Assembly: GCA_964468125.1 (NCBI GenBank)
Contig: CAYXVF010000007.1
Location: 16,531 to 80,530 of the forward strand
Length of the DNA: 64,000 nt
Reading direction: 5' to 3'
From: an uncultured Bdellovibrionales bacterium
GTDB taxonomy: Bacteria; Myxococcota; XYA12-FULL-58-9; CAYXVF01
Position 1 is the stretch's first letter. Each line of letters opens with the position of its first letter. The translations under genes were made by a program, and so were the position numbers. Under the pieces are notes generated by a model. It had not been told where the DNA came from. It made no database searches and saw only the letters and a list, made by a program, of their open reading frames with translations. Positions 9,925 through 33,447 of this stretch are shown piece after piece.

Positions 9925-11022
9925 ATGGCGACCGTTTTCTATGGATTGGCCGGCGAGGGCCGAGGGCACGCGATGCGCGCCCGCACGGTGATCGAGCACC
10001 TGCGAAGAGAGGGCCACCGGGTCGTGATCTACACCTTCGGTCAGGCGCTCGAGGTCCTCGAGCCGATCTACGAGGGGACCGATGTCGAGATCAACGCGAT
10101 TCCGGGACTGCGCTGGGGCTACGTGGGCAAGAAGGTGAGCTTCTTCAAGACGACGTTCCAAGCCTTTCCCCTTCTCGCTCAGATCCCGTTCTACGCCCAC
10201 CGCATCGCAAAACGCATGCGCCAAGAGCGCGTCGACCTCGTTCTCTCGGACTTCGAGCCCATCACGATTCATGCGGCCAAGCGTGCGAAGGTGCCGCTGT
10301 GGTCCCTGGACCACCAGCGCTTCTTGCAGGTCTGTGACCTCGGCAAGCTCCCCTGGTTCGAGGCCTTCCGCGTCTGGTGCATGCGCACGGCCATCAACAT
10401 TGTCTACGGCGACCCGGATCGCATGTTCGTCTCGGGCTTCTATTTGCCGGAGCTCAAGAAGCCGAACCCCAAAGTCGAGCGCGTCGGCATCCTGATGCGC
10501 GACGTGGTGTTGAAGGCCAAGCCGACCAAGGGCGAGCATCTGCTGGCCTACATGCGACGGGATTGCCCCGAGCATTTCATCGACATGCTGGCAGGCTGCG
10601 GCCGCGAGGTCCGCCTCTACGGTCTCGGCAAGCAGGAGCCGCGCGGCAGCATCGTATACCGGGAGATCGACACGGAGCGCTTCATCGCCGATCTCGCCAG
10701 CTGCGCGGGGCTCATCTGCACCGCGGGCAATCAGCTGATCGGCGAAGCGATGTACATGTCGAAGGCGGTGCTCGCGCTTCCCGAGGCGAGCAACTCCGAG
10801 CAGCAAATGAACGCGCACCTTCTGAAAATGTCCGGCGCCGGGATGGTGGTCGATTTTGACAGCGTGAAGCCGGAGGACTTCGAGACCTTCATCGACCGCA
10901 CGGAGACGATGGGGCGTCGGATCGACCCGACATCGGTGTCTGCAAACGAAACCGTCCTGAGCGCGATCGATGCCCAGCTCGCGAGCCGGACGGTGCGAAA
11001 AGCGGCGCGCAAGGTCGGCTGA
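9925..11022 (+). CDS. glycosyltransferase (GT-B fold, GT28/MJ1255-like)
   Basis: N-terminal 'MATVFYGLAGEGRGHAMRA' matches the G-rich nucleotide-sugar loop of MurG/GT28-like enzymes. C-terminal 'CTAGNQLIGEAMYMSKAVLALP' is the donor-binding region. GGAG SD 9 nt upstream of ATG 9925. The listed ORF 9643 start is an upstream extension. Confidence 0.6.
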   Translation: MATVFYGLAGEGRGHAMRARTVIEHLRREGHRVVIYTFGQALEVLEPIYEGTDVEINAIPGLRWGYVGKKVSFFKTTFQAFPLLAQIPFYAHRIAKRMRQERVDLVLSDFEPITIHAAKRAKVPLWSLDHQRFLQVCDLGKLPWFEAFRVWCMRTAINIVYGDPDRMFVSGFYLPELKKPNPKVERVGILMRDVVLKAKPTKGEHLLAYMRRDCPEHFIDMLAGCGREVRLYGLGKQEPRGSIVYREIDTERFIADLASCAGLICTAGNQLIGEAMYMSKAVLALPEASNSEQQMNAHLLKMSGAGMVVDFDSVKPEDFETFIDRTETMGRRIDPTSVSANETVLSAIDAQLASRTVRKAARKVG

Positions 11023-11042
11023 CCTGAAGAACGGGCGCTCGC

Positions 11043-13379
11043 CTAGGCGCGCTCGTTGTCGTCTTCGTCGATTTCTTCTTCGTCGTCGACTTCTTCGTAC
11101 TCGTATTCGTATTCTTCGTCGTCGCCGGGCTCTTCGTCCTCGTCGACCTCTTCGTACTCGTATTCGTATTCGTCTTCGGCTTCGCGGACCTCTTCGCCCT
11201 CGTCGTCCCCGGCGGTTTCGTCCTCTTCCTCGTATTCCTCTTCGTCTTCGTCGCCCTCTTCCGTATCGACGGAGGGAGGATCGAAGGAGGGCGGCACGGG
11301 CATCTCGACGGTCGGTCGGCTTTCGAGCGCCGCTGTGGCGGCCCCAGGGGATTCGATCCGAAGTGCAAAGCGAAGGGACGCTTCCCCGTCGACGCGGAGC
11401 GCGAGTACGAGGGAGATCCCCTGGTCTTCCCCGCGAAAGCCATCCACGTCTTTGACCGTGGTGCGGATGCGGTCCGCCCACAGATCCACCGGTGCGGAGA
11501 AGCTCAGGTGCACGGTGGTGCCGTCGATGCCCTTCACCGCGACAGCCCTCGCCTCGTGGTACTCCGATTGGGACGGCTCGTGATTCTGGCCTTCGATCAC
11601 CAAGACCGCCTGGTCGAGCCGAATGGGGATCTCCGTGGCGTAGATCAGTCGGCTACCGTCGTTCGCGCGCACCTTGGTCTCGAACACGACCTCCGGTGCG
11701 TCGATGGGGATCCGCAAAGAGCGCTCAACATCCAGAGTCCGGCGAGCGACGCTCGCGAGGGGCAAGGATACGGTGGCATCATAGTGGTAGGTCAGGTCGT
11801 CTTCATCGACCTCATTGCGCTCCACAGACCACTCGGCGTGCTCCGGAGTCAGGTCCAGGCCCGAGCCACTGAAGAGCTCCGCAGCACTCGCCCCCGCATC
11901 GAGGATCCAGTCGCGCATCCCGGAACGATCCGAACGATCGGTGTCGAGCGGGAGGTCCTGCTCCCGGCGTGGCAGAGGGTCGAGCGGACCCCGCGGGCCC
12001 CGAGCTTCGAGCTCCTGAGCGGATGCGAAGGGTGCTTCGGAGGCGCGGGCAAAGAACACCTCGTTGCGCCGAGGAGGGACATCAAAGAGCGTCTTCGCTC
12101 CGAGTCTGTCGTCGAGCGTCCGAATCGCACCACCCTGATGCGGGTCTATCCACGCGGTCAAATAGCGGGTGTTGATGAACACTTCATCGCGAAGATCACT
12201 GTCGCGGTCGTCTTCCTCCTCGCCGATGAAATCCTCGTCTCCTTGGACGAGCGCATCGATCATGAGCTCCGCGCGCAGGAGCTTTTCGTAGGTCGACGAA
12301 CGAAGAAGTGGGTCGGTGAAACCTGCGTGACGCCCGCGCCAATAGGCGTCAGGGGACTGGGCCGCAAAGATCATGCGCTGCGCGGTAGCGAGCTCGCCGG
12401 CCCACTCCGCTTGAAGACCTTCTTCCTCCATCGTGGCGACGGTCTCGCGCAGCTTGTCGCTCGCCCGGAGCATTCGACGCGCGAGCGTGTCGACTTCACG
12501 AAAGCTCTGTAGAAAATCGTGCCAGTCCACCGGCGCTACGCCGCCCGCGTCCGGCTCGATCACGTCGCAGCAGCCATGAATGAACTTCAGAGCGGTCACC
12601 GAACGCACCTGCTCGAAGCTATCGCCCGGGCGGACGGTCTCGATCTCCGGTCGCTTCCCACCCAACGCATCGAGAAAGCTCGCAAGCCAGCCGCGTTCAA
12701 ACGCCCAGGCTCGGCTTCCGAGCTCGAAGCCGAGCCGTTCGCCTCGGACCCACACCGAGATCACCGGTCGGCTCTGCCCGCCGGCGCGGTCGACCACCGA
12801 GTCGATCCAGCGGTACACGTCGGAGCCGACGATGGAGCGCGACAGGGTGTCATCGAGAATGAAGGCGGGAAGCTTGTGGCCACCGCGCTCGAACACCCCG
12901 AGGCCGCGATGGGGATAGTCATCGCGCAAGAACTGAGAGGCGGCGCCAAAACTGTAGAGCGTATCCGTGTCGCTGAGGAAGCGCGGCACCTCGGTGGTCC
13001 AGGCCAGCTCCGGGAGCCAAATGCCGCTCGGTGCCTCGCCCACGAGCGATTCCCAGTACTCCGTGCTCATCTCGAGCTGGGCGCGAATGTCCTCTTCGGG
13101 CAGGAGCGCTGGCAAGCCGCCGTAGAACAGGCCTCCGAGGACCTCTACCTGCTCACGCAGAACGAGGGCTCGGATCCGCATGAGGAGCGGCTCGCGGAAC
13201 TTGGAGAGAAAATCCAAGAGGTGGCCGCCGAAGTGGAGGGCGACGCGGAGAGTGGGCCGAGCCTCGAGGTGTTCGATGAAAGGCTCGTAGAATCGCTCAC
13301 ATGCGGTGGAAAGCTCATCCTTTCCAACCGAAAGCGGCTGGTGAAAGGGAATGACGAGCTGGAGCTGAATCGGTTCCAT
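11043..13379 (-). CDS. glycoside hydrolase family 57-like protein with acidic low-complexity C-terminal tail
   Basis: N-terminal 'LVIPFHQPLSVGKDEL' is the GH57 region-I HQP motif. 778 aa. The last about 110 aa are D/E/Y-rich '(EYEYEYEEVDEDEE)x2'. Confidence 0.6.
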   Translation of the reverse strand: MEPIQLQLVIPFHQPLSVGKDELSTACERFYEPFIEHLEARPTLRVALHFGGHLLDFLSKFREPLLMRIRALVLREQVEVLGGLFYGGLPALLPEEDIRAQLEMSTEYWESLVGEAPSGIWLPELAWTTEVPRFLSDTDTLYSFGAASQFLRDDYPHRGLGVFERGGHKLPAFILDDTLSRSIVGSDVYRWIDSVVDRAGGQSRPVISVWVRGERLGFELGSRAWAFERGWLASFLDALGGKRPEIETVRPGDSFEQVRSVTALKFIHGCCDVIEPDAGGVAPVDWHDFLQSFREVDTLARRMLRASDKLRETVATMEEEGLQAEWAGELATAQRMIFAAQSPDAYWRGRHAGFTDPLLRSSTYEKLLRAELMIDALVQGDEDFIGEEEDDRDSDLRDEVFINTRYLTAWIDPHQGGAIRTLDDRLGAKTLFDVPPRRNEVFFARASEAPFASAQELEARGPRGPLDPLPRREQDLPLDTDRSDRSGMRDWILDAGASAAELFSGSGLDLTPEHAEWSVERNEVDEDDLTYHYDATVSLPLASVARRTLDVERSLRIPIDAPEVVFETKVRANDGSRLIYATEIPIRLDQAVLVIEGQNHEPSQSEYHEARAVAVKGIDGTTVHLSFSAPVDLWADRIRTTVKDVDGFRGEDQGISLVLALRVDGEASLRFALRIESPGAATAALESRPTVEMPVPPSFDPPSVDTEEGDEDEEEYEEEDETAGDDEGEEVREAEDEYEYEYEEVDEDEEPGDDEEYEYEYEEVDDEEEIDEDDNERA
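11083..11199. repeat. imperfect tandem direct repeat (about 57-60 nt x2) encoding the EYEYEYEEVD acidic tail
   Basis: 'gtcgacttcttcgtactcgtattcgtattc...' repeated at 11083-11139 and 11140-11199. Confidence 0.7.
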
Positions 13380-13412: not shown

Positions 13413-14813
13413 TCAATCGACCCCCTGGAGCGCATCTAGGCGCGATCGGGCCTCTTCGTGGCGCGCATCTTCATCGTTGGGAATGTACTGGAGCAGCTCC
13501 TGAAGCGACTCGACGGCCCGCTGGCGCTCTCCGAAGCGAATCGCCTGCTCCGCCGCGAAGATGTACGACTCGAAGGTTTCCTGTAGCTCACGCTCGGCCT
13601 TCCGGAGACTCTTGCCGATATCGTAGTAGAGCGGCGGTCGCTCATCGATGCCCTCCAAGAAGAGACTGGCCTTCTCGAAGTACTCGATCGAGCGCGCGAG
13701 GTTCGGTCGAGCGACCGTCCGTGTATCGAAGGCTGCCTTGCCTAGGTCGAAGAGCTGCTGCGCCCGGTCCACGTCTACTTCGGGCAGTGGACTCTCGTTC
13801 ACCGAAATCCGAGCGACCCCCCACCGCGGCACCGAGCCCGCGAGGGGGTGGTGCACGAAGGCGATCAGATTGCGCCCGTTGTAGAGAAGCTCGCGCGGCA
13901 GGTCGATCGTGTGTCCCGCGGTCCAGCGCGCGGGGGAGGCCGGTGCGTGGCCAATGCGCTTGCCATTGAGCTCCACACTGACCTCGTCGTCCGTGTCGAT
14001 GCCCCCGGTTGCGAACTCGAGGGTCGCCTTGCCCCCTTCGTAGTCGAAGGCAAAGGTAGCCGAACGCGGCGTGAAGACATCCACCTTGCCCGCGCCAAAG
14101 CGCAGCTCGGCGTTGCTCTCGTTGACGACGAAGACCTCGCCGCTCCGATCGACTTTCGGGCGATGATTGAGAACGAAGTAGGCGCCCACGGTCGCGGCAC
14201 CCAAGACGAGCGCGAGGGAGAGCGCGGCAACGACTTTCGAGCGCGCGAAGCGACGGCGACGACGGCGACGACGCGACATCGATCCCGATGCCGAGGACGA
14301 ACGAGAGCCTGAGCGATCACTGCCGAGGCGTACGGGCGTGTTCGGACGACGGCCGGCGCTCATCAACTCGCGCACCGAGTCGGACTCGAACGCTTGGGTT
14401 TCCGCATTCGCCAGATGTCGCCGTTGACTGGCATTGCCTCCGTCCCAGGCGAGCCGCGAGCCACTCGGCCGGTTCCCCTGCTCCTCTTCGTCGAGCTCCA
14501 TCTTGAACTCGAAGGTCACCGGTCCCACGCCGATGCGGTCGCCGTCGTAGAGGTACGCCTCGGTGGTCAGGCTCTCGTTGAGGAAAGTTCCGTTGGCACT
14601 GCCGATGTCGCGAAGGACAAATTCTCCGTATTCGAAGGCGATCTGGCAGTGACCGCGGCTCACGTTGGTGTCGAGGAGCACGAGGTCGCAGGAGGGCATT
14701 CGGCCGATGGTGACGTGCGGCTGATCGAACTCAAACTCCCTCCCTTTGCCCTTGCCGGCGACGATGAAGAGCTTGAATCCCATACTCGCGGGAGTGTAGT
14801 GCGCCTCGCTCAC
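13413..14813 (-). CDS. FHA-domain membrane protein (cytoplasmic FHA - RS/RR-rich linker - single TM - periplasmic domain); terminal gene of the Tad-like operon
   Basis: 'MGFKLFIVAGKGKGREFEF...VTIGRMPSCDLVLLDTNVSRGHCQI...FVLRDIGSANGTFLNE' is an FHA domain. This is followed by 'RRRRRRRRFARSKVVAALSLALVLGAATVGAYFVL', a TM helix. GTG 14813 overlaps the tadC stop as TGA-G-GTG. Alternative ATG at 14783. Confidence 0.8.
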   Translation of the reverse strand: MSEAHYTPASMGFKLFIVAGKGKGREFEFDQPHVTIGRMPSCDLVLLDTNVSRGHCQIAFEYGEFVLRDIGSANGTFLNESLTTEAYLYDGDRIGVGPVTFEFKMELDEEEQGNRPSGSRLAWDGGNASQRRHLANAETQAFESDSVRELMSAGRRPNTPVRLGSDRSGSRSSSASGSMSRRRRRRRRFARSKVVAALSLALVLGAATVGAYFVLNHRPKVDRSGEVFVVNESNAELRFGAGKVDVFTPRSATFAFDYEGGKATLEFATGGIDTDDEVSVELNGKRIGHAPASPARWTAGHTIDLPRELLYNGRNLIAFVHHPLAGSVPRWGVARISVNESPLPEVDVDRAQQLFDLGKAAFDTRTVARPNLARSIEYFEKASLFLEGIDERPPLYYDIGKSLRKAERELQETFESYIFAAEQAIRFGERQRAVESLQELLQYIPNDEDARHEEARSRLDALQGVD

Positions 14814-14814
14814 C

Positions 14815-15672
14815 TCAGCCGCCTCGATACAGCCAGTCGAACACCAGGGGCCCCGCCAGAATCACCCAGATCGTCGGGAAGATGAAGACCACCAAGGGGA
14901 TCAACATCTTGACCGGAGCCTCGCCCGCGGCCTTTTCAGCCCGCTGGAAGCGCTCGCTGCGCAGCTGGTCCGCCTGGATCCGCAGGGTCTTGCCGAGACC
15001 GGTGCCGAGCCGGTCCGCCTGGATCATCGCCGAGAGAAAATTCGAGAGGGCCGGCAGACCGACCCGTGAGCTGACGGATTCCATCGCTTCTGCGCGGGTC
15101 TTGCCGACGCGGATCTCTCCGAGCATGCGCGCGAGCTCGTCGCGGAGTGGGCCGGCTTTTCCGCGATCCACCACCTTCGCGATCCCTGCGCCGAAATCGA
15201 GCCCCGCCTCCACGGAAAGCGTCAACAGATCGAGTTGGTAAGGCAGGTCACGCAGAATCAGCGCGTGCCGCTGCTTCACCTTGTCGCGCAGCCAGACGAA
15301 GGGATAGACCGCGCCCAAGACGAAGGTCGCAAGCGACAGCCAGATGGACCAACCGGTGGCGAGAGCGAACCACACGCCAAGGGCAAGCCCCCCGAGGCCC
15401 GCGAGCATCGCCCAGAGGAGCAGCTCCGCAGGGCTCAAGCCCTGGAGCCCCCCTGCCATCACGATCGCACGCTTGACCCGCGAGTCGAGCCTCTCAGGCA
15501 CCACGTGGCCAAACTGGCGCACCCACGTTTCGACGAGGGCCCCTCTGCGTGGGCGATTTCGACGATCCTGTCCCAGGCGCGCGATGGCCACCGCGGCGCG
15601 CACCCGCGAGGTCGCATAGTGGGCAAGGAGGAACGCCACCGTGGCGCAGAGGATGGGAACCAAAAGCTCCAT
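14815..15672 (-). CDS. tadC: Flp pilus assembly inner-membrane platform protein TadC-like (T2SSF domain)
   Basis: T2SSF-type sequence 'LPYQLDLLTLSVEAGLDFGAGIAK...' with 3 TM segments. ATG at 15672 overlaps the tadB stop (ATGA). Confidence 0.75.
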   Translation of the reverse strand: MELLVPILCATVAFLLAHYATSRVRAAVAIARLGQDRRNRPRRGALVETWVRQFGHVVPERLDSRVKRAIVMAGGLQGLSPAELLLWAMLAGLGGLALGVWFALATGWSIWLSLATFVLGAVYPFVWLRDKVKQRHALILRDLPYQLDLLTLSVEAGLDFGAGIAKVVDRGKAGPLRDELARMLGEIRVGKTRAEAMESVSSRVGLPALSNFLSAMIQADRLGTGLGKTLRIQADQLRSERFQRAEKAAGEAPVKMLIPLVVFIFPTIWVILAGPLVFDWLYRGG

Positions 15673-16514
15673 CACACGCGCACCGCAATGACACGCCGAA
15701 TGAACAACGCGCCACACGCCTCCATCAACACGACCAACGCGATCATCGTGTAGCCGAACCAGTGGCTCAACATCGGCCGAGTGAGGTCCGGTCGGATCGC
15801 GTCAAAGGCGAGCCATACCAGGACCGGCATCGCGCCAATCACGACCCCCTGGAGCCGGCCTTGCGCCGTGAGCGCACGGATACGTCCTTCGATCCGGAAG
15901 CGTTCCCGGATTGTGCTCGCGATCCGGTCGAACATCTCCGCTAGGTTGCCACCGAGTGACCTCGCCGTATTGACCGCGGTCACGACGAGCAACAGATCAT
16001 CGCTGCCGACCCGGCCCGCGAGATTCTCGAGCGCTTCTTCCGTGCTCGCGCCGAGGCGAATCTCCCGCACGGTGAGACCGAACTCCTGCGACAAGGGTGC
16101 GGAGGCTGTACGCCCCGTCTCCTCGAGCGCCTGCTGAAAGGTCATCCCCGCCCGGAGGGCCGCTGCGAGGCCGCCGAGCGCGTCGACGAGCTGGCGCTCG
16201 AAGAGTTTGATGCGACGGGCCCGATAGAAGCGGACGAGCAGGGTCGGGCTAGCCGCCCCAAATCCGACGAGGACGACCGTGACAACGGGGCCAAAGAGCA
16301 AGAGGCCCAGTGCCGCCCCCAAGGCCGTGATCGCCACCGTGAGGATCACGAGCTGACGCGGCCCGACGAAGAAGAACATTTCCGAGAGGTCGCTCACCCG
16401 CCGAGCCAGGTAGCGCTCCTCGTACTGGGCAAAGGCGCGCCGGAGCACGTCGATGACGACCACCGTGAGAAAGAAGACCGCGCCCGCGGTCATGAGAAGA
16501 ACGAGCACGTCCAT
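15672..16514 (-). CDS. tadB: Flp pilus assembly inner-membrane platform protein TadB-like (T2SSF domain)
   Basis: 'FERQLVDALGGLAAALRAGMTFQQALEE...' is a T2SSF/GspF-like domain with N- and C-terminal TM helices. 1-nt overlap with cpaB. Confidence 0.75.
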   Translation of the reverse strand: MDVLVLLMTAGAVFFLTVVVIDVLRRAFAQYEERYLARRVSDLSEMFFFVGPRQLVILTVAITALGAALGLLLFGPVVTVVLVGFGAASPTLLVRFYRARRIKLFERQLVDALGGLAAALRAGMTFQQALEETGRTASAPLSQEFGLTVREIRLGASTEEALENLAGRVGSDDLLLVVTAVNTARSLGGNLAEMFDRIASTIRERFRIEGRIRALTAQGRLQGVVIGAMPVLVWLAFDAIRPDLTRPMLSHWFGYTMIALVVLMEACGALFIRRVIAVRV

Positions 16515-17344
16515 CAGTTCGGCACCGTCTCGGTCTCGCGGCGGTCGCCGCGAATGATCTCGACCTTGAAGATCTTGGACTGTGTCTTCGAGATCCGTTT
16601 CGAGCGCTCACCGGTGAGCAGGGTCTGGAGAGTCGTACGACCTTCTCCGAGGTCATAGATCTCGTTGTCCTCCGGCGAACGCAGCGTGAGGTAAAGCTGG
16701 CCGAGCTCCTGCCCCAAAAGAAGCATCTCCGCCGCCTCCGGGAGCACGTGCAGGGTGACCGTGTTGTAGGCGCGCTCCGCCTCGCTCAAAAGCCTCCGGT
16801 TCGTGCGACCCCCGATCCTTCCCGTTGCGAGGACGATCACGTTCTGAAGCATCGTGACCGCGGCCATGTCCCGCCTCCCGTCGCGAAAAACGCCGAGCAC
16901 GTCGACCCGGTCGCCCGGCTCGATCCAGTGGTGCACAGAGCTTTCCGGGCTGACGCGTACGGACACGGCACGCCCCTTCTCCTGAATCGTACTCGAGAGC
17001 TTCTGATCACCGGCGAGCGTGTGAATGTGCGAGTAGAGAAGCACGTCACCCGCGAGCATGGGCGTTCCGAGCTTTCGGCCCACCACCGGCGCGCGATTGA
17101 AGTCTTCTACCGTGACCACCGACCGCGTCACTGAGCGGCGCGGCAAGGTGCCTACCGCCAATGCTTCGCGGGTCAGGGTATCGCCGACCTGCAAATCGCG
17201 GTTCGCGACGATCACCTCCACCGGGTCCCAACCGCGGGTAATCGCCTCGCGCTGCTTCTTGACGAGCAAGTAAGCCACGACACCGGCGAGAACCGCGAAG
17301 ACCGCGGCAATGATGAGGGGAGTACGTCCTTGCAGCATGGTCAT
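16514..17344 (-). CDS. cpaB: Flp pilus assembly protein CpaB/RcpC (SAF domain)
   Basis: N-terminal TM 'LIIAAVFAVLAGVVAYLL' followed by a SAF-like domain 'VIVANRDLQVGDTLTREAL...'. Typical CpaB length of 276 aa. Confidence 0.75.
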   Translation of the reverse strand: MTMLQGRTPLIIAAVFAVLAGVVAYLLVKKQREAITRGWDPVEVIVANRDLQVGDTLTREALAVGTLPRRSVTRSVVTVEDFNRAPVVGRKLGTPMLAGDVLLYSHIHTLAGDQKLSSTIQEKGRAVSVRVSPESSVHHWIEPGDRVDVLGVFRDGRRDMAAVTMLQNVIVLATGRIGGRTNRRLLSEAERAYNTVTLHVLPEAAEMLLLGQELGQLYLTLRSPEDNEIYDLGEGRTTLQTLLTGERSKRISKTQSKIFKVEIIRGDRRETETVPN

Positions 17345-17345
17345 C

Positions 17346-17549
17346 TCACGGAATGGGCAAGCTCAGGCCCGTGTGAATGGAATCGATGTAGATGTCGAAG
17401 GTGTTGACGAAGAGTCCAAAGACCGAGACGCGCCCGGCGCCGTCGGGTTCGGGCAGGTAAGGCACAAAGAGTACGACCGCCATCATCAGGAGGAGCAGGC
17501 CGTACTCCGTGGTGGCTTGGCCGCGTTCACTCTCATGGATTCGTTTCAT
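17346..17549 (-). CDS. flp: Flp/Fap-family pilin (67 aa prepilin)
   Basis: 'MKRIHESERGQATTEYGLLLLMMAVVLFV' carries the Flp G-x4-EY processing motif followed by a hydrophobic helix. GGGAGG SD 7 nt upstream. The ATG overlaps the upstream stop (ATGA). Not present as a separate entry in the ORF track; it is embedded in ORF 17346..17873. Confidence 0.75.
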   Translation of the reverse strand: MKRIHESERGQATTEYGLLLLMMAVVLFVPYLPEPDGAGRVSVFGLFVNTFDIYIDSIHTGLSLPIP

Positions 17550-18229
17550 CGTCGCGCCTCCCATCGCAGGGTGGCCGTGCTCTTCGCCTGCCCTGCTTCC
17601 TCGTCGCTGTAGACCGCGAGGTCGAGGTTCTCCTCCCCGTCGCCGAAGGAGGCGAACGCCCGCCGTCCATCTGAGAGTTGCGCGCGGGCCGGACCAAAGC
17701 GCTCTCCGTATCGCTCGATCAACGCATCGCCCTCGACCCTGCAACTCAGAGTCACAACCTCGCGCACTACCGCACCGTCGCGGCTCGCGCTGTGGTGGAG
17801 GGGCTCGCAGCTCTCGTCGATCGGAGCGCGTACGGTGTAGCCGCCCTCTCCAAAGAAACGACGACTCACCCACGCCACGGAGACCTTGCCCTGGCGAGCG
17901 ACCACGACGCTGCGACGCTCGTCACCGTCGGACGCGGTCAAGAGCTCCTCCTCTTCGTTGTAGCGGCGACTCACCACAAACCCCTCGCCGCGCCAGACCG
18001 CTTCGTAGTGCTCGACGATGGTGATCGGGTCGTCCATGCTCAGGAAGTAGGCGAGCTGTCGCTCATCACCATTGAGACGAACCCCTTCCCCGGCAGACAG
18101 GAGCCGATGCTCCGGGTAGTAGGCCCAGCGCAGATCGACCGGTGCACGACCGTCGCGGGCGGCGGCCACACCAGCGAGTGCCGCGAGCGCGCATCCGGCG
18201 AGGAGCACCATCGGAAAAGTACGGATCAT
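17546..18229 (-). CDS. secreted hypothetical protein encoded inside the Tad-like operon
   Basis: Signal peptide 'MIRTFPMVLLAGCALAALAGVAAA', then an acidic soluble domain of about 200 aa. ATGA overlaps on both sides. Confidence 0.6.
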   Translation of the reverse strand: MIRTFPMVLLAGCALAALAGVAAARDGRAPVDLRWAYYPEHRLLSAGEGVRLNGDERQLAYFLSMDDPITIVEHYEAVWRGEGFVVSRRYNEEEELLTASDGDERRSVVVARQGKVSVAWVSRRFFGEGGYTVRAPIDESCEPLHHSASRDGAVVREVVTLSCRVEGDALIERYGERFGPARAQLSDGRRAFASFGDGEENLDLAVYSDEEAGQAKSTATLRWEARR

Positions 18230-19353
18230 CGACACCTCCTGGATTGGGCATCGGCGCACCCCATGAATGCGTTGCCTCGAGCGTTCAGGGCCTCGAGCAT
18301 GTTGCTGCAGAGATCGCGGGGGTTGTCGAAAATCGGCAAGGTCTCGAACGACGTCACCGCGCCGTCCTCCTGTAGCTGCCCGCGCGAGACCCCGGTACGG
18401 CTGAAGGGATTGAACTGCCCGGCGAGCTCTTCGTAGCGTTCGCGATCAACCGCAACGCAGGAGCGGGCGTCGAGATAGGGGCGCGACACGACGTAGCGTC
18501 CCGCGTCCTTCGCCCCAACGAGGCCGAGAAGCCCACCCACCAGACCTCCGCCGGGAAGAACCTTCGGTGCCTCATCGTGAAAGCGCTCGACGACGTGCGC
18601 AAAGGCGCGCCGCGACTCGACCGACTCACTGGGCAGAACCGAGTAGCCGCTGTTGATTCGCCAGCTGTCCACGAGGAGCGTGGAGTCAACCGGCTGCCCT
18701 TCGTCGCGAAGCTCCCGTCCCTGCTGCCCCTGCACCACCGGGGTGAGGTCAAAGCGCGAAACCTCGGCGAGCGCAGCGAATCGTTCCCGGTCAGAGGCGC
18801 GCACCGGCGCAAGAATGCGAACGGAGCCGCGGCCGGTGACGAGACCGCGGTCGTTTAACCCGGCCCGTTGAAAGAAGCCCGCCGCGATGTCGTTCGTAGA
18901 GCCTCCCAATCCCAGCGCTCCGAGGATGAGAGACACGGTCGCGTTCGGCGCGGGGATCTCGAGGTTGGCCACGTCGGGAAGCACCGGCGCGCGCTCCTGG
19001 CGAGCTGCCGTCGGGAGCATCACCGCCGAGACGCTTTGCCGTGCCTGACCTGGAAGAAGCCTCGTGCGTGCCGCGTCGAGATCGAGATAAAGCGCACCGA
19101 CGCGGTCCCGCACGCGATCCCTGGCCTCGTTGAACTTCTCCGTATGCCTGGCGTTTTGACTCTCATAGTCCGAAAGGGGCTCTTGCGCGAAGGCCCAGGT
19201 ATTGAATCGCGCGATCTCCTGGGACTTGAGCTTAAAGAGGCCGACATCGATCAGGTAGACGGAGCCGTAGAACACGCCGATGAGAAGCGGCATGATCAAA
19301 GCGAACTCGGTCAACGCGGAGCCGCGCTCGTATTTCTCCGTTCGCCCTCTCAT
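18226..19353 (-). CDS. TadE/TadG-like pseudopilin (375 aa)
   Basis: N-terminal 'ERGSALTEFALIMPLLIGVFYGSVYL' is the TadE-like motif (PF07811-type). Confidence 0.7.
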   Translation of the reverse strand: MRGRTEKYERGSALTEFALIMPLLIGVFYGSVYLIDVGLFKLKSQEIARFNTWAFAQEPLSDYESQNARHTEKFNEARDRVRDRVGALYLDLDAARTRLLPGQARQSVSAVMLPTAARQERAPVLPDVANLEIPAPNATVSLILGALGLGGSTNDIAAGFFQRAGLNDRGLVTGRGSVRILAPVRASDRERFAALAEVSRFDLTPVVQGQQGRELRDEGQPVDSTLLVDSWRINSGYSVLPSESVESRRAFAHVVERFHDEAPKVLPGGGLVGGLLGLVGAKDAGRYVVSRPYLDARSCVAVDRERYEELAGQFNPFSRTGVSRGQLQEDGAVTSFETLPIFDNPRDLCSNMLEALNARGNAFMGCADAQSRRCR

Positions 19354-21005
19354 CAGAACATCATCGTGTTGTCGGCGAAGAAGTCTGCGATCACACCGCT
19401 CAATCCCAGGCTACCCAGGAGTCTGTCGGTCACGACACTCTTTGGCGCAAGGCGAGCGCCCCAGTAGGGATTGAAGAGATTCGGCGGCTCCCGCCAGGCA
19501 CCAGGGCGATGGTAGTAGACCTGCGCGCGGGCAATCGCGTTGACCCCACGAAGCGCTCCCGTCCCCAGGAGCCCGTCTTCCCCGATGCGCGCGTCGAGAC
19601 TCGCCACTTCTTCGCCGCGCCGGATCTCGAAGCTCAGATCCGACCCGGATTCCATTTCCCCCGGCGTCTTGTTCAAGAACACCCAAACGTCGGGCTGGTT
19701 GTAGTCGCGCACACCGTCAGCGGCGGCGTCGCTCTTCGACTTGAACCGAAAGTAGCGGCCGAGGCCTCGCCACTGGAGCCGCTGGCCGAACTCGTTCTCG
19801 TCGACGCATTGGAAGCCCGCCGCGTCTGGATCGCTCACCAGGGTAAAGAGCCTGGCTCCGAGAAAACCGGTGCTACCGTAGTCGTCGGGCTTCTCGTAGC
19901 GGCAGTAGCGATAGCCATCGCGGCCGGACTGCAGACTCGCAAAACCATCCCGCGCCGCGCGCGCGAGCGCAGGAATCGTCAAGATTCCGGTGCGAATGTC
20001 TTTCGAGGCCATCACCTCGCCGCGGGAGAGAAACGACGCTTCGTCCGCGCTGCGACCGGTATCCTCGAGCGTGTTCTCGTCGCCGAGACGAGTTAGGAGC
20101 TTCGAGGTCCCCTCGAATTGCAGGCCCGCAAAACCGGTCGCGAGCTCGTTGAGGCGTTCGCTGAGCCGCTTGCCCGCGCGTCGAGTGGACTTCTCCTGCG
20201 TCACCGATTCGAGCAGCTCGAGGGGCTCGGTGATCTCGTCGAGGATCCCGTTGCGCCACACGATCGTTCGCTGCCGCGCACCCGCAGCGAAGCGCGACGC
20301 ATTGATCACCTCTGCAAACGCCCGCTTTGATTCCGGAGACTTTTGGAGCGCCCCCGGGTCGAAGGCGTCGATGTAGGCGTACACGTTGTAGGCGTTGAAC
20401 GCGTAGGAGAGTGGGTGCAAACGCGCCCGCGGATCGTTTGCTTCGGCGATCTCTGGAGCTCCTTCGAGCAGGCGAGCGGTAGTGCTCGCCACCATGCCCG
20501 CCGCCATCGCGGTGTAGAGGGTGCTGAAGGCTGGCTCGCTCGCAAGTGCGGCCTCGAGGGCCGTCAGCTTCACCTCCAGCAAACCCGCCCGCACCTCGTA
20601 GACCGCTTGCAGCGATTGGCCGATGCCTTCGAGCGCCGAACCGGCGCTCGCGGTGAAGGGGATCGCGCTCAAGAAGCGACCGTAGGAGGTCGTGATGTCT
20701 CCGAGGTATCCGATGACCCCCACCGAGTAAGTCGAGCGCGAGACTTCTGCGTGCAGCTCGAGCAGCTCGAGCTGTCGAGCGGCGATCGCGCGGTTGCTGA
20801 AAGCGATGAAGTTGAAGCTCCGCGCAGACTGAGTGGCGAGCGAGTAGGCCGATGCATCGGCTGCGTTTTGCAGGGTGATCTTCTCGTAGACGGCGCGAGA
20901 GAAGTTGTAGGAAGTGTACATGCCGATCGCGAGGATCACGAGGGCTACAACCCCAAGTAGCGCCACCTGGCCGCGTTCGCGACGCGATGCTCGTCGCAAG
21001 CTCAT
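19353..21005 (-). CDS. TadG-like pseudopilin / pilus-associated protein (about 550 aa)
   Basis: N-terminal 'RRERGQVALLGVVALVILAIGMY' is Tad_N/TadG-like. Start placed at ATG 21005, which overlaps the upstream stop as ATGA. The listed ORF extends to 21029. Confidence 0.65.
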   Translation of the reverse strand: MSLRRASRRERGQVALLGVVALVILAIGMYTSYNFSRAVYEKITLQNAADASAYSLATQSARSFNFIAFSNRAIAARQLELLELHAEVSRSTYSVGVIGYLGDITTSYGRFLSAIPFTASAGSALEGIGQSLQAVYEVRAGLLEVKLTALEAALASEPAFSTLYTAMAAGMVASTTARLLEGAPEIAEANDPRARLHPLSYAFNAYNVYAYIDAFDPGALQKSPESKRAFAEVINASRFAAGARQRTIVWRNGILDEITEPLELLESVTQEKSTRRAGKRLSERLNELATGFAGLQFEGTSKLLTRLGDENTLEDTGRSADEASFLSRGEVMASKDIRTGILTIPALARAARDGFASLQSGRDGYRYCRYEKPDDYGSTGFLGARLFTLVSDPDAAGFQCVDENEFGQRLQWRGLGRYFRFKSKSDAAADGVRDYNQPDVWVFLNKTPGEMESGSDLSFEIRRGEEVASLDARIGEDGLLGTGALRGVNAIARAQVYYHRPGAWREPPNLFNPYWGARLAPKSVVTDRLLGSLGLSGVIADFFADNTMMF

Positions 21006-21982
21006 GGTGCTTCTCCGAGGCTGAACCACACGGGCTCGCGGCGGTTGTCCTCAAACAAATTCGACTGCATCTGCATGGCGTAGCTTGCGCGCAGAGGCAG
21101 GAGATAGAGGTCGTGGCGCTCGGCGAGCCATCGCAGGGTCCGCACTTCCTTGAGCCACTGGCTGGTCGTGAAGAAATCGTCGATGGGTCCGTCGCCGTCC
21201 GAAGAGCGCACCGCGTCCGACAACGTGCGCCCATCGCTCAGGCGCGTCTCGAGCTGCACCCAGTCACCCAGGTCGCTATTGAACGTCCGGCTATGCAGAA
21301 GCTCCTGCGCGAGCCAGAGCTCGAAGAGAATCCGGTTCACGAGCGGGATCCGCAGCGGATAGAGCACACGCACCTCGAGGGCGAGCGTGCCGAGCCCGTC
21401 GGGCGTGTTGGGATCGGCGAACATCGCCACGTCGTCAAAGTCGATCTCGCCGCTCGGGTAGCGCAGGGGCGCGCGCGGATCGACCGATTCGGAGAGGCGC
21501 GCCTGTCGGCTCGCCCACTCCCGAGCCGCCTCGAACTCTTCGCGGGTCGGGCGGGTCACGGCGACTTCGATGAGGGAGATGTCCTGAGCGAGCCCGGCGA
21601 TCTCGACGCCCAGCAGATCGCCGGCGAGACGCTCCACGGTGGCGGTGCCCGTGTCCACAGCCTCGGTGATCTCAGCGGCAGCTTTGACCTTGGCCCACGT
21701 TGCGAGATAGCGGCCGGCGTCATCCGTGCGATCGTAGAGGGGCAAGGTCGCCACCAGCGCGGCGTTGCGCATGACGTTCCAGTCCGCGTTGTGCACGATG
21801 CCCGCGCGGGTCGCGCAGTAGGCGGCGTATTCGGTGAGAATGCGACCGTGCTGCACGAGCATCAGCTGCAGCGCGCCGAGGGCGGCGAAGATCATCACGG
21901 GCATGATGATCGCCGTCTCGACCAGTGCTTGGCCGCGCTCGCCGCGGCGACCGCGACCCGTATGGGACCCAAGGCTCTTCAA
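21002..21982 (-). CDS. TadE-like pseudopilin (326 aa); first gene of the operon
   Basis: 'GERGQALVETAIIMPVMIFAALGALQLMLV' is the classic TadE N-terminus. A 300-nt non-coding region follows upstream (21983-22288). Confidence 0.7.
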   Translation of the reverse strand: MKSLGSHTGRGRRGERGQALVETAIIMPVMIFAALGALQLMLVQHGRILTEYAAYCATRAGIVHNADWNVMRNAALVATLPLYDRTDDAGRYLATWAKVKAAAEITEAVDTGTATVERLAGDLLGVEIAGLAQDISLIEVAVTRPTREEFEAAREWASRQARLSESVDPRAPLRYPSGEIDFDDVAMFADPNTPDGLGTLALEVRVLYPLRIPLVNRILFELWLAQELLHSRTFNSDLGDWVQLETRLSDGRTLSDAVRSSDGDGPIDDFFTTSQWLKEVRTLRWLAERHDLYLLPLRASYAMQMQSNLFEDNRREPVWFSLGEAP

Positions 21983-22288
21983 TGACCTACTTCCTGACGA
22001 GGCGCCCCGCCGGCGAAGGCGGACGCGCTCCCTTTCCTTATCGGCACCGGCAGGTGCGCTGGTGCGTGAGTCCGGCGATCGAAAACCGAGCTAAACGCCT
22101 GATTTTTGGTGGATTTCCACAGGGCTGGGCGGAGCCCAGGGCCCGCCCGGTCGAGCTGCACGCCGCGCCCGTCGCCGATCTGTGGTGGCCTGTCCACAGA
22201 TGTGTTCGACATCCTACAGGGACACACCACACTTTTTGCCGCCGATCGCGGTTTTCCGGGCCTTCTGACGTGGGTGGGTGATGGTCCG

Positions 22289-23608
22289 ATGTTTGCAGAA
22301 CCTTTCCGCGGCATGGATCGTTCCAAACTGAGAGTCTCATCATTCGCGCTCGCGCTGTCGGTGACGGTCGGCTGTGGCGTCGAATGGGTGGACGTAGAAG
22401 GAAGCGCTGTCGACTCGAGCCTCTTTGTCCCGAACGGGAGCACCGGCGGGGAGCAGAACGCGGGCGGCAACGACAACGACTCGGCGCTCGACTGTCCCGT
22501 CGACGAGCAGGCCGAATGGTCACGCTCGGGCTATCACGATTTCCTCCAGGCGAATTGCGGCCTCTGCCACCTCTTCGGTGAGCCCGCCACCGGCGCCTTC
22601 GCAGACCCGGACCTCTCTGTCGCATACTCCGAGTATTCGCTGCGCCCGGAGCAGGTCGTCGAGTTTTCGCTGAGCGCCACGCACAAGCCACCGTTCACGG
22701 GCCCGCATCTGCAGCCTGAGCTCGATGCGATCCTCGACGACTGGGAGGCGGTGCTGGGGCGCGTTGCCGCATGCGAGGCCGCGGAAGCGGAGAACACGAA
22801 CGACACGGAGTCACCCGGCGAGGAGCCTCGGGAAATCGTCACCGACCCGCTACTCGCGACCGTTGTCGAGTTCACCGCCCCGCTCGCCATGAACGCGACC
22901 GAAGAGGGGGTCACGCTGAGCTGGGAGCTCGCGAGCGCGCTGACGAGCGTCACGACGCCGGCGAGCCTCACCGACGTCGTCTTCGAGCTGACGGTTCGCA
23001 CGGTGGAGACCGCCACCGGGCAGCGCGCCTACCTGTTCTCCTCCCCCACCTTCAGCACGGGACCGCAGGCACTGAGCTTTGGCCGAATCGAAGTCCGCGT
23101 AAATGCCGCTAGGCCGAGCAGCGCGACGACCTTTCACAGCCTCGCGATCGCCGTTCCTTCAACGAGCACGATGACCGCGACCACCTCGGCGATGCCGGTC
23201 CCCTTCGACTTCAGCGCGAGCGACACCCTCGAGGTGGGCTTTGGCTTCATCAACGCCATCGACGACTTCGATCCCACCGAGCCTCCGCCGGTGGGTGGCG
23301 GAGACGACCCAGTCGGCGGCGGTGCTGATCCGGTTCCCGGCGTCACCTTCGCAACACTGAGCACCGGCGACGGGGTCTTCGCCCTCGAGTGCGTGAGTTG
23401 CCATTCAGCGGCGAATCCTGCTGGCGGACTCGATCTCACGAGCTACATGAGCACGCTCATGACGGTCACACCGAACGACCCGGATGCGAGCACGCTCGTG
23501 CAGCGCATGGAAGACCCAATGAACCCGATGCCACCAGCGGGGCTCTTGCCCCAGGCAATGATCGATAGCGTCCGCGAATGGATCGCATCAGGAGCACCTG
23601 AGGGCTGA
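22289..23608 (+). CDS. lipoprotein with two CxxCH motifs and a C-terminal planctomycete-cytochrome-C (PSCyt1)-like domain
   Basis: Lipobox 'LALSVTVGCG'. 'NCGLCHLF' and 'ECVSCHSAANPAGGLDLTSY...NPMPPAGLLPQAMIDSVREWIASGA' fit the PSCyt1 consensus C..CH...GGL.L...MPP...L...WI..GA. Alternative start at ATG 22313. The listed ORF starts at TTG 22106. Confidence 0.6.
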   Translation: MFAEPFRGMDRSKLRVSSFALALSVTVGCGVEWVDVEGSAVDSSLFVPNGSTGGEQNAGGNDNDSALDCPVDEQAEWSRSGYHDFLQANCGLCHLFGEPATGAFADPDLSVAYSEYSLRPEQVVEFSLSATHKPPFTGPHLQPELDAILDDWEAVLGRVAACEAAEAENTNDTESPGEEPREIVTDPLLATVVEFTAPLAMNATEEGVTLSWELASALTSVTTPASLTDVVFELTVRTVETATGQRAYLFSSPTFSTGPQALSFGRIEVRVNAARPSSATTFHSLAIAVPSTSTMTATTSAMPVPFDFSASDTLEVGFGFINAIDDFDPTEPPPVGGGDDPVGGGADPVPGVTFATLSTGDGVFALECVSCHSAANPAGGLDLTSYMSTLMTVTPNDPDASTLVQRMEDPMNPMPPAGLLPQAMIDSVREWIASGAPEG

Positions 23609-23644
23609 GGCCCTCCGGAGAGACGAGAGAGAGGAGTTGAGATC

Positions 23645-25237
23645 GTGAGCCATCTGCTTCTTCTAACCCTGCTGAGCCAAGCCCCTCAGGTTGAGACGGA
23701 GTTGGTCCTGAGCGAGGCCAACCCGGAGGAAACGATCACCATCGACATTCCTTCCGGCGAGGTGTCGATTCTGCAGCTGAACGTCCTCGACCCGGACTTC
23801 CCAGACGAAGGGGAGCTCTACATCAACGAGATGGGGCCGATCGCGCTCTTTCCCGGCGGAAACGGCGGCCTCGACAGCCAAACCGTCAACATCAACATCG
23901 CGCTCTCCCCGGAGCAGCAGGGTTGGTTCGTGGCCGGCCAGAATGCCCTGCGCTTCACCCGGGTCGCGACCGCGGGATACACGATTTTTAGGATCACCGC
24001 TCTCGGCGATCTCGCTCTCCTCACCTACGACGCGGTCATGCCCACCACGGACCCGGTGGACCAAGCGATGGAGAAGGCCTCCCTGCTCTATCGCCGGCTC
24101 GTCGGCCTACGCACGTCCGTGGACAACCCAACGGTCCGAGCGATGGCCGACTACATCGCCATCGACGATTGGGTCGGTGCGGCGATGGTCGCGACCGAGG
24201 AAGCGGGCTTCTACAACCACGTGGTTCGGGATTTTGCCGCGAAGATGTCAAACCAAGAGGTGAGCGTTGGAGCGCCACTCAACGACTTCGTAGCGACGAT
24301 CGTAGGCATCACCCGGGACGAGCTCGATGCGCGTGAAATGCTCACCGGCGACTTCTTCTATATGGCGACCGGCGACGCAGTGGCCGTGCCCTTGGACGTT
24401 CTTCAGGATGTGGTGACCTCGAACAATCACTACTCCGCCCTCGAGAACGAGCGCTACGACCTCGCTGCAGTTCTGAGCCGCATCGATCAGCAGTACATTC
24501 GCGACCCCTCTGCGACCGACGAGCTCGTAAGCCACCCGGAACCCGCCGGGGTGCTGACCACGCGAGGCTGGATGGAAGCGCACGCGACCGCGGGGACCAA
24601 CCGACGACTCGCGGAGTTTGCGATCAGCGAGTTCACCTGCACGGAGATGGAGCAGTGGGCGGACTCGACGAGCCCAGACGCATTCGTCTGGCGCGACGTG
24701 GACCGCTTCCCTGCCGGTGATGCCGCCCGCTACCAGACCGAGTGCAAGTCCTGCCATGCGAACCTCGATGCGTTCGCCGGCGCCTTCGCGCGCTTCGACT
24801 TCGAGAACGGGTTCACGAAGTACGCGCCGTACTACGCGGACGGCGAGGATGACCCGGACGCGATGAAGCAAGAACCCATGGGCGTCTCCGAGAAGATGAC
24901 CCACAACTCGGACGTCTTCCCGGAGGGATACTCGCTCACCGACGACCACTGGACGAACCTCGCCCGAAGCCCGGCAAACGAAGCACGCTTTGGTTGGCGC
25001 GGCGATGTGAACGAAGGGCAAGGAATCGCGAGCTTCGCGGAGGCGATCGCCAACTCGACGGCCTTCTCGCGCTGCATGGTCGAGCGGGTATTCAACGAGG
25101 TGTGCCTCCGTGCTCCAAGCGCTGCCGAGCTCGAGCTCATCAGTGGCCTCGCCTGCGACTTCGAGGCGAGCGGATACAACCTCAAGCAACTCTTTCAAAC
25201 CGTGGCTGCTCGTCCCGAGTGCCTCGGAGCGCACTAG
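23645..25237 (+). CDS. CxxCH-containing hypothetical protein (530 aa), possibly related to planctomycete DUF158x/159x families
   Basis: GTG start with a GAGAGAGGAG SD. Single 'ECKSCHANLDAF' heme-binding-type motif in the C-terminal third. Family assignment is by gestalt only. Confidence 0.5.
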   Translation: MSHLLLLTLLSQAPQVETELVLSEANPEETITIDIPSGEVSILQLNVLDPDFPDEGELYINEMGPIALFPGGNGGLDSQTVNINIALSPEQQGWFVAGQNALRFTRVATAGYTIFRITALGDLALLTYDAVMPTTDPVDQAMEKASLLYRRLVGLRTSVDNPTVRAMADYIAIDDWVGAAMVATEEAGFYNHVVRDFAAKMSNQEVSVGAPLNDFVATIVGITRDELDAREMLTGDFFYMATGDAVAVPLDVLQDVVTSNNHYSALENERYDLAAVLSRIDQQYIRDPSATDELVSHPEPAGVLTTRGWMEAHATAGTNRRLAEFAISEFTCTEMEQWADSTSPDAFVWRDVDRFPAGDAARYQTECKSCHANLDAFAGAFARFDFENGFTKYAPYYADGEDDPDAMKQEPMGVSEKMTHNSDVFPEGYSLTDDHWTNLARSPANEARFGWRGDVNEGQGIASFAEAIANSTAFSRCMVERVFNEVCLRAPSAAELELISGLACDFEASGYNLKQLFQTVAARPECLGAH

Positions 25238-25249
25238 GAGATGGGAACC

Positions 25250-25963
25250 ATGGCGAAGATTCTGCTGCGCTCACCGATTCTGCTGGCGCTCGCTCTCGCA
25301 GCCTGCTCGGCGGAAGAAGTTCAACCGACCGAGCAGGTCGCGATGAGCGGTGACGATGGGACGGGCTCCTCGAGTGGCCCGAATACACCGACCGAACCGG
25401 GCGGCGGCGCGACACCGGACGAACCGACGGACCCCATCGTGCCAACCCCCGAGCCCGTTGAGGTATGCACGGCTCCCGTGGCGACGGCCGCGGTCCCCGC
25501 CGAAGCCTCGGTGGTGCGTGCTAATCGTGCCCTCGACAATTTCGTCTCCTGCCTCGGGACCGGCACACCGAGTCGCGCTTCCGTCGACGCCTGGCGTGAA
25601 AACCGCGCGGCGCTGTCGACGACCGGAGACGCGGAGACAATCGGCGCCCCGGTGCTCCAAGCGCTCAACTCGATCGCGGCCGAAGTCTGCAACGATCTGG
25701 TCGAGCTCGAAGGCGCCCCCGAGGCGACGCCGAGGATATTTGCCGGGGTCGACCTCGACGCCGGAGCCCTGAGCGAGCGCGAGTCCGTGATGCAGCGGAT
25801 CGCCCGTTCGTGTTGGGGCCGAGAAGCGAGCAGCGCAGAGCGCGAACGCCTCGCCTCCGGCCTGGATGAAGCCTTTGCGGAAACCCCGGACCCGGGAGCG
25901 CGCATCGAGGGGTTGTTCCTGTGCACCTCGATGTTGAGCTCCCTTGCAGCGATCGAGATTTAG
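25250..25963 (+). CDS. hypothetical lipoprotein (P/T/E-rich linker then Cys-containing domain)
   Basis: 'MAKILLRSPILLALALAACSAEE' is a lipobox. AGGAG SD about 10 nt upstream of ATG 25250. The listed ORF starts at 25241. Confidence 0.55.
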   Translation: MAKILLRSPILLALALAACSAEEVQPTEQVAMSGDDGTGSSSGPNTPTEPGGGATPDEPTDPIVPTPEPVEVCTAPVATAAVPAEASVVRANRALDNFVSCLGTGTPSRASVDAWRENRAALSTTGDAETIGAPVLQALNSIAAEVCNDLVELEGAPEATPRIFAGVDLDAGALSERESVMQRIARSCWGREASSAERERLASGLDEAFAETPDPGARIEGLFLCTSMLSSLAAIEI

Positions 25964-25990
25964 AGCTCAGAACGTTTGGAGTGAGGACCC

Positions 25991-31051: not shown

Positions 31052-31204
31052 ATGGTCATTCGCATCAGCCTCGTCGCGGAAATCGCCCTGACCGCGCTCC
31101 CTGCCCCGGTGAGTGCCGGGGAGACGACTGCGAAGCGACAATTGTGGTTGCGCGCACTGCAGGCCCGCGACGAAGGGAACGCGGCGGCTACATCGTCTCG
31201 ATGA
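31052..31204 (+). CDS. candidate small ORF (50 aa) with strong Shine-Dalgarno
   Basis: AAGGAGG 6 nt upstream of the ATG. 'MVIRISLVAEIALTALPAPVSAGE...' has a signal-peptide-like N-terminus. High GC3. Overlaps the 3' end of the convergent ttpD by 17 nt. Not in the ORF track (<60 aa). Confidence 0.3.
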   Translation: MVIRISLVAEIALTALPAPVSAGETTAKRQLWLRALQARDEGNAAATSSR

Positions 31205-32393: not shown

Positions 32394-32403
32394 CCACCCG
32401 CCC

Positions 32404-33036: not shown

Positions 33037-33042
33037 GTCAGA

Positions 33043-33444: not shown

Positions 33445-33447
33445 CGA

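Follow-up and report, generated by a model that had tools for sequence, protein, structure and literature searches.

The Kil machine of Myxococcus xanthus is a Tad-like pilus that kills prey on contact and is encoded in two gene clusters (PMC8460266). Cluster I (MXAN_3102-3108) comprises the FHA protein MXAN_3104, the peptidase KilA, the secretin KilC, the FHA-fused ATPase KilF, and KilD (PMC8460266). Cluster II (MXAN_4648-4661) runs from MXAN_4660 (KilM) through 4659 (TadG-like), 4658 (KilL), 4657, 4656, 4655 (KilK), 4654 and 4653 (PMC8460266, Supplementary file 1) to 4652 (KilB), 4651 (KilG), 4650 (KilH), 4649 (FHA, PrgH-like by HHpred) and 4648 (FHA-TPR; PMC8460266). A later study showed the tip to be a heterotrimer of KilM4, KilN4 and KilL4, with KilK acting as an adapter minor pilin and the gene for the major pilin KilP (mxan_5121) located at another site (PMC12075869). 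The genetics and imaging of the machine, including its assembly at prey contact and contact-dependent killing, have been established in M. xanthus only (PMC8460266; PMC12075869). Here, we describe an operon of nine genes (g1 to g9) in a 64-kb stretch of contig CAYXVF010000007.1 (hereafter the window, meaning the whole stretch analysed), the host of which is an uncultured lineage outside the Myxococcaceae. With a probability that we put at roughly 0.8, the operon is an orthologue of M. xanthus kil cluster II, that is, the tip and inner-membrane-platform half of a split, Tad-like machine of the type IV filament class, in a compact nine-gene form. This is a known system and not a new kind; the novelty lies in the compact form and its presence in an uncultured clade of Myxococcota.

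The assignment is carried by gene order and by homology. The operon is collinear with the loci of Myxococcus landrumensis (L005, reached by a search with g9 and organized exactly in the M. xanthus cluster II order) and of M. xanthus AM003 (L062), with the succession KilM, KilN, KilL, MXAN_4657, KilK, KilB, KilG, KilH, and MXAN_4649. The best blastp matches of the window proteins are their positional counterparts in L005, and full-length homology is found by hhalign for g1-g6 and g8 (against the L062 families) and for g9 (against the Myxococcus family at the MXAN_4649 position), with probabilities of 99-100% and E 1e-18 to 1e-85, and by blastp for g7. Like cluster II of M. xanthus, the locus is devoid of ATPase, secretin, and peptidase genes, has a bitopic FHA gene directly after KilH, and encodes the same prepilin motifs: the G/XXXXE site (slashes denote cleavage) is present in g1, g3, and g5, and the KilN protein is without Glu at +5 in both organisms. 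A preliminary description of this DNA had referred to the Kil apparatus as a Tad-like system split over two loci with an FHA component, which is accurate according to PMC8460266, and had ventured that the locus might be the pilin/platform half of such a system. The collinearity and full-length homology bear this out, and the synteny comparison that it called for, with MXAN_4648-4661, returned the same order with a counterpart for each of the nine genes. It was also right that pilin-type genes come first, but the order that it considered inverted is the normal one for a Kil cluster II.

The nine open reading frames (ORFs) are co-directional on the minus strand, extend from 21982 down to 13413, and have a coding-type G+C content at third codon positions in a window with a G+C content of ~65%. 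Re-examination of starts placed those of g2, g4, g5, and g8 at ATG codons at 21005, 18229, 17549 (resulting in a product of 67 amino acids, aa), and 15672, respectively, and g1 starts at a TTG with a GGAAG Shine-Dalgarno sequence 7 nucleotides (nt) upstream. ATGA overlaps are found at the g1/g2, g3/g4, and g4/g5 junctions, TGATG overlaps at g2/g3, g6/g7, and g7/g8, and 1-nt spacers at g5/g6 and g8/g9. All eight junctions are thus overlaps or 1-nt spacers, which makes the operon a tightly coupled unit, in agreement with the translational coupling proposed earlier (six of the eight junctions are ATGA or TGATG overlaps). The same proposal was headed as a 10-gene operon, although its own list had nine members, the number mapped here. 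A scan for sigma-70 promoters found none, and terminator-like sites occur at a frequency near that expected from shuffled sequence.

The first three genes encode the putative tip. g1 (21002..21982, minus strand; 326 aa) is a KilM-like minor pilin of TadE type that scores above the cut-off for Pfam TadE (1.9e-6), carries the prepilin site RG/QALVET (G/QALVE), and aligns with the M. xanthus KilM4 family by hhalign at 100% (E 4e-55, 285 columns). g2 (19353..21005, minus; 550 aa) is a large minor pilin that is KilN-like (TadG type) and would provide both the backbone of the tip and its distal domain. It scores above the cut-off for Pfam Tad (PF13400, 2e-5), and its site, G/QVALL, has no Glu at +5, as is the case for G/QALVL in M. 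xanthus KilN4. By blastp, g2 is 37-39% identical to KilN4 at the N- and C-terminal ends only; the hhalign comparison with the KilN family spans 501 columns (E 2.7e-57). g3 (18226..19353, minus; 375 aa) is a KilL-like minor pilin (tip subunit) of TadE/TadF type with the prepilin site RG/SALTEF (G/SALTE). Its identity to Myxococcus KilL4 is 28% along the entire protein (blastp, E 5e-20), and it aligns with the KilL family at 99.9% (hhalign, E 1e-33, 339 columns); its match to Pfam TadE is below the cut-off (1.8e-3, 18.8 bits versus 22.9). The tip proteins are strongly diverged from those of Myxococcus (23-39% identity) and contain few cysteines (1, 2, and 4).

g4 (17546..18229, minus; 227 aa) encodes a secreted protein that is the counterpart of MXAN_4657. 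It has no match in Pfam or NCBIfam, and its relationship to the Myxococcus family at the MXAN_4657 position is apparent from hhalign (99%, E 4e-18, 193 columns) and, over 83 aa, from blastp (28% identity). Cleavage of the signal peptide, MIRTFPMVLLAGCALAALAGVAAA/RDG, is probably by signal peptidase I. We also considered a lipoprotein, but the lipobox-like LAGC is doubtful, being just 13 residues into the protein; a longer hydrophobic stretch and an AAA/R site come after it, and a signal peptidase I signal is therefore likelier. g5 (17346..17549, minus; 67 aa) is a Flp-type pilin resembling the adapter minor pilin KilK. Pfam gives no match, and the protein has the Flp G/XXXXEY motif (ERG/QATTEY) followed by a hydrophobic helix, as well as the conserved C-terminal motif DIYxDS...LPxP found in KilK. 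The match to the Myxococcus KilK counterpart is 34% by blastp (E 7e-11) and that to the KilK family 99.1% by hhalign (E 1.4e-18, 64 columns). We reject g5 as the major pilin, as which the mid-operon Flp had originally been presented, because it is of the adapter type; in M. xanthus the gene for the major pilin KilP lies elsewhere.

g6 (16514..17344, minus; 276 aa) encodes KilB (CpaB/RcpC), in which a membrane anchor at the N terminus precedes the SAF and RcpC domains (Pfam RcpC/CpaB 8e-22 plus SAF). It passes the NCBIfam equivalog model for CpaB (TIGR03177, 160 bits versus a cut-off of 71) and matches Myxococcus KilB with 42% identity by blastp and E 1.8e-77 over 265 columns by hhalign. g7 (15672..16514, minus; 280 aa) and g8 (14815..15672, minus; 285 aa) encode the T2SSF inner-membrane platform proteins KilG (TadB type; Pfam T2SSF 1.4e-17) and KilH (TadC type; 7.7e-18). 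g7 is 50% identical to Myxococcus KilG over 277 aa, that is, full length (blastp), and g8 is 43% identical to KilH (blastp; hhalign E 8e-85, 277 columns). The profile searches thus confirmed most of the domain calls made beforehand (g1 TadE, g2 Tad, g6 RcpC/SAF, g7 and g8 T2SSF, and, as described below, g9 FHA), but not those for g3, where TadE falls short of the cut-off, or for g5, which, like g4, matches no model.

The operon ends with g9 (13413..14813, minus; 466 aa), a bitopic FHA protein corresponding to MXAN_4649. It matches Pfam FHA (9e-17) and Yop-YscD_cpl (PF16697, 2e-17). AlphaFold2 models built with 13 homologues predict a cytoplasmic FHA domain (residues 13-105), a disordered linker, a poly-Arg segment, a single transmembrane helix (191-217), a beta-sandwich (227-341) that is periplasmic by topology, and a five-helix TPR-like domain (348-463); the confidence (pLDDT) of the periplasmic part is 91. 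The canonical phosphothreonine (pThr)-binding residues (G37 R38, S52 R53 H55, and N74) are invariant in the family alignment. The transmembrane and periplasmic part can be aligned with the last ~290 residues of the Myxococcus family at the MXAN_4649 position (hhalign 100%, E 1e-50, 277 columns), and the FHA domain is 49% identical to that of the protein at this position (blastp). Similarity in FHA domains cannot assign paralogues. The cytoplasmic linker is much shorter than in Myxococcus, where the protein has 480-1100 aa. Structure searches returned pThr-binding FHA domains, such as those of GarA and OdhI, and generic TPR folds, and nothing more specific.

The layout of the g9 model, cytoplasmic FHA domain, single transmembrane helix, and periplasmic domain, is shared with GltG, SctD/YscD/PrgH, and TagH. 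NCBIfam models for GltG (Myxococcus gliding, 4.5e-11) and SctD (inner ring of the type III secretion system, 6e-5) match weakly over the FHA-to-transmembrane region, and that for TagH (type VI secretion system) matches as well, all of them sub-threshold and far below their cut-offs. Membership of the SctD family was rejected, as TIGR02500 reaches 22 bits against a cut-off of 86 with the match confined to the cytoplasmic FHA domain (PF16697). In addition, the predicted periplasmic beta-sandwich and TPR-like helices differ from the ring-building domain repeat of SctD. As judged from the model, the likeness to GltG, SctD, and TagH is one of architecture only.

In canonical Tad/Cpa systems (Aggregatibacter tad, Caulobacter cpa, Pseudomonas), we find the same basic set of a Flp pilin with the G/XXXXEY motif, minor pilins of TadE/TadF/TadG type, CpaB/RcpC, and two T2SSF proteins. 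In contrast to these, the window locus is without tadV/cpaA, rcpA/cpaC, tadZ/cpaE, and tadA/cpaF, its Flp reaches no Pfam model, the operon includes a gene for an FHA membrane protein, and the minor pilins come first. The Tad-derived machines of the predatory "delta-proteobacteria" Bradymonas sediminis (DN745_00680-00700) and Bdellovibrio bacteriovorus (Bd0110-0114) share CpaB, TadB/TadC, TadE/G-like pilins, and neighbouring FHA proteins with the window operon. In both, the genes for CpaB, secretin, ATPase, and TadB are contiguous, whereas in the window g6 (CpaB) directly adjoins g7 (TadB) with a 1-nt overlap and no motor or secretin gene is present. Given the contiguity in Bradymonas and Bdellovibrio, the direct CpaB-TadB junction represents a derived state of Myxococcus type.

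The absence of motor components extends beyond the operon. Some 50 further predicted proteins, nearly all called ORFs of the 64-kb window, were scanned against Pfam together with the operon, and no T2SSE ATPase, secretin, ParA/CpaE (TadZ), or A24 peptidase was found among the window proteins, consistent with what had been noted earlier for the operon itself. A motif scan of the window revealed no second Flp-like ORF. No ORF with a T2SSE-type Walker A motif was present within 10 kb on either side of any of 86 related loci (86/86). In L087, reached via KilD (P0025), cluster I consists of FHA-239, an A24 peptidase, a secretin, FHA-T2SSE, and KilD. Separate cluster I modules (secretin, FHA-ATPase, and KilD) were found in five loci of other Myxococcota (L087, L088, L089, L090, and L094), three of which include the A24 peptidase, and no T2SSF genes are present in the modules of L088, L089, L090, and L094. 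In Cystobacter fuscus Cbf 10, the two clusters are on one chromosome, cluster I at ~7.54 Mb and cluster II at ~7.27 Mb, about 260 kb apart. That the motor, secretin, and peptidase should be encoded elsewhere in the organism studied here, as the preliminary description held, is inferred from this conserved split in relatives.

In L094, from another lineage of Myxococcota, the cluster begins with a canonical Flp pilin of 79 aa (7506-7745, plus strand; RRGQGMTEYIIIVALIAIAAIG...), followed by genes for an A24 peptidase, a secretin, an FHA-T2SSE ATPase, and a KilD-like protein with two FHA domains; the major pilin can thus travel with the motor half. Around cluster I of L090 (900-22000; secretin, FHA-ATPase, and KilD-like protein) lie genes for two Ser/Thr kinases, a PP2C phosphatase, another FHA/zinc-ribbon protein, and, in divergent orientation, an FHA-sigma54 activator; this suggests a phospho-signalling neighbourhood.

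The compact form of cluster II is not confined to the window. One genome per species was scanned with an alignment of KilG, and the best 80 of 203 relatives were kept. Almost all of these 80 are titled Myxococcota or Deltaproteobacteria, the three others being two Bdellovibrio-type entries and one Comamonas, and the nearest relative in the scan is 71% identical. Tabulation of synteny revealed two layouts, a 13-gene layout in Myxococcaceae, including M. xanthus, and the nine-gene layout of the window. The latter is complete in L003, L007, L008, L010, L011, and L013; L009 is cut after g8 and L012 contains g5-g9 only. All carriers are metagenome-assembled genomes (MAGs) labelled Myxococcota or Deltaproteobacteria, except that L013 is labelled uncultured Bdellovibrionales. 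The nine-gene order is kept in at least six MAGs, the proteins of which show sequence differences of 30-60%. One variation is seen in L001 (= L010; GCA_016218825.1; 2986-9932, plus strand), where ORFs of 117 and 2159 aa with no Pfam matches are inserted between KilH and the FHA gene.

Divergence within the clade is uneven. Between the window and L003, the platform proteins are the most similar (g6 93%, g7 85%, and g8 76% identity), and lower values are found for the remainder (g1 69%, g2 64%, g3 60%, g4 44%, g5 55%, and g9 64%). The faster divergence of tip and adapter than of platform is in line with a published proposal in which tips diversify and the machine that carries them is conserved. 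Ratios of non-synonymous to synonymous substitution (dN/dS) between the window and L003 are 0.04-0.31 for eight genes and 0.63 for the 64-codon g5, and the genes appear to be under purifying selection.

A mechanism can be sketched from homology to the M. xanthus system, the parts of which were tested genetically in that organism. KilG and KilH (g7 and g8) would constitute the inner-membrane platform, and KilB (g6) would link it to the secretin. g1, g2, and g3 would be cleaved at their G/XXXXE-type sites and come together through their N-terminal helices as a heterotrimer, the tip, by which the fibre is both primed and capped; g5 (KilK type) would connect this tip, as an adapter, with a major Flp pilin encoded elsewhere. 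KilF (the FHA-fused ATPase), KilA (the prepilin peptidase), KilD, and KilC, a short secretin that lacks the N0 domain, would come from a second, unlinked cluster. For g9, we propose a role as a core scaffold or signalling subunit of the platform, based on its domain layout, its pThr-binding residues, and the kinases, phosphatase, and FHA-sigma54 activator found near cluster I in relatives. Its predicted periplasmic beta-sandwich and TPR domain may contact envelope parts of the machine, and the cytoplasmic FHA domain may tie the platform to a phospho-dependent recruitment network of KilF, KilD, and Ser/Thr kinases. A 2026 preprint describes the spatial determinants of Kil assembly, and of its positioning at prey contacts, as unknown. 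By analogy with M. xanthus, the biological output would likely be contact-dependent attachment to and killing of other bacteria.

Several observations weigh against the assignment to a functional Kil cluster II. First, cluster I (KilC, KilF, KilA, and KilD) and the major pilin were found neither for this organism nor for any MAG of the clade, and searches for KilF led to other lineages only. A KilF query from L087 retrieved Myxococcaceae-type sequences only, none of the 50%-identity representatives of KilF matched a MAG of the clade, and amino-acid composition did not discriminate among KilF candidates. A profile made from two non-Myxococcaceae KilFs, and the loci of P0165, P0345, and P0424, did yield clear cluster I modules, all of them in other assemblies. 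Second, counterparts of MXAN_4648 (FHA-TPR), 4653, 4654, and 4656, to which no function is assigned in PMC8460266 and PMC12075869, are absent from the window operon and from the clade loci L003 and L007-L013. The operon is referred to as a compact variant because these four accessory genes of Myxococcus are absent and the 14-ORF complement is incomplete. Third, the dN/dS ratios between the window and L003 are rough values because dS is near saturation. Fourth, the homologue of g9, MXAN_4649, is uncharacterized in PMC8460266 and PMC12075869, which bears on the role suggested for g9. Finally, the Pfam scan of the window brought up no protein that speaks to predation.

The last point leads to the alternative that best withstands scrutiny, namely that the same split Kil-type hardware is used for adhesion, surface sensing, or cell-cell contact and not for killing of prey. 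Adhesion is the function of most Tad pili (PMC8460266), the window holds no sign of predation, the clade does without four Myxococcus accessory genes including that for the FHA-TPR protein MXAN_4648, and blastp does not align the middle part of g2, which has diverged too far from KilN4. On the other hand, the known carriers of Kil-type systems (Myxococcales, Bradymonadales, and Bdellovibrionales) are all predators, and all nine genes encode full-length homologues of Kil cluster II proteins, even if the killing factor of M. xanthus itself has not been identified. We consider a purely non-predatory use unlikely on this balance.

Much less probable still is that the operon is an orphan remnant, a non-functional half of a tad locus left behind after loss of the motor and secretin genes. 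Such decay would account for the lack of ATPase, secretin, and peptidase genes in 64 kb and for the failure to find them for any MAG of the clade, but it is difficult to reconcile with nine intact, translationally coupled ORFs, with a gene order conserved in at least six MAGs as diverged as described above, and with the low dN/dS (0.04-0.31), and in M. xanthus a machine with the same split is functional (PMC8460266). The chance that truncation at the window edge or mis-assembly has made an ordinary single-locus tad operon look split, the circumstance that the preliminary description had named as fatal to its proposal, is negligible, and nothing was found in its favour: the window continues for 13 kb beyond the operon at one end and for 42 kb at the other, and unrelated genes flank it inside the window (a divergent PSCyt1 gene on one side, GH57 and a glycosyltransferase gene on the other), which refutes truncation, CpaB is followed directly by TadB with the 1-nt overlap, and the same boundaries recur in independent assemblies.

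The orthology with kil cluster II extends the split Kil architecture, documented mainly in Myxococcales so far, to an uncultured clade of Myxococcota known from MAGs only. When the compact cluster is compared with that of Myxococcus, nine genes emerge as always present and four as dispensable, which offers a natural minimized version of the cluster. The comparison also flags the FHA membrane protein MXAN_4649 and the secreted protein MXAN_4657 as priority targets. One possibility, which we advance tentatively and with some doubt, is that the nine-gene operon represents the minimal conserved core of Kil cluster II, with g4 and g9 as core parts, g9 sensing envelope contact and recruiting KilF and KilD, and the carrier clade consisting of widespread contact-dependent predators. 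If true, carriage by marine and groundwater MAG lineages would mark the clade as such.

The genes next to the operon deserve brief mention. A GH57/4-alpha-glucanotransferase-like gene (11043-13379, minus strand), with Pfam GH57 and AmyA middle and C-terminal domains, starts 33 nt past the stop codon of g9; in Myxococcus, the downstream gene is xseA instead. A GH57 gene is also found directly downstream of the FHA gene in L001 (= L010), L003, L007, L008, and L011. The GH57 protein of the window ends in a long, acidic, repetitive tail (EEYEYEYEEVDE...), and the Arg-rich and Ser-rich ORFs that this region yields on both strands (10889-11583) are composition artefacts and not genes. Divergent from the operon is a four-gene cluster (22106-27442, plus strand) with signatures of PSCyt1 (Planctomycete-type cytochrome c) and, weakly, of PSD2/DUF1585, two of its products being without a Pfam match; L003 does not have this cluster at the equivalent position. 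Farther away, an ORF of 1323 aa (45002-48973, plus strand) has coding-type composition and no Pfam match, and an operon on the minus strand (31188-36231), encoding a TPR protein, TonB, ExbD, ExbB, a long ExbB, and a DUF3450 protein, makes up a complete energy-transduction cluster of TonB type.

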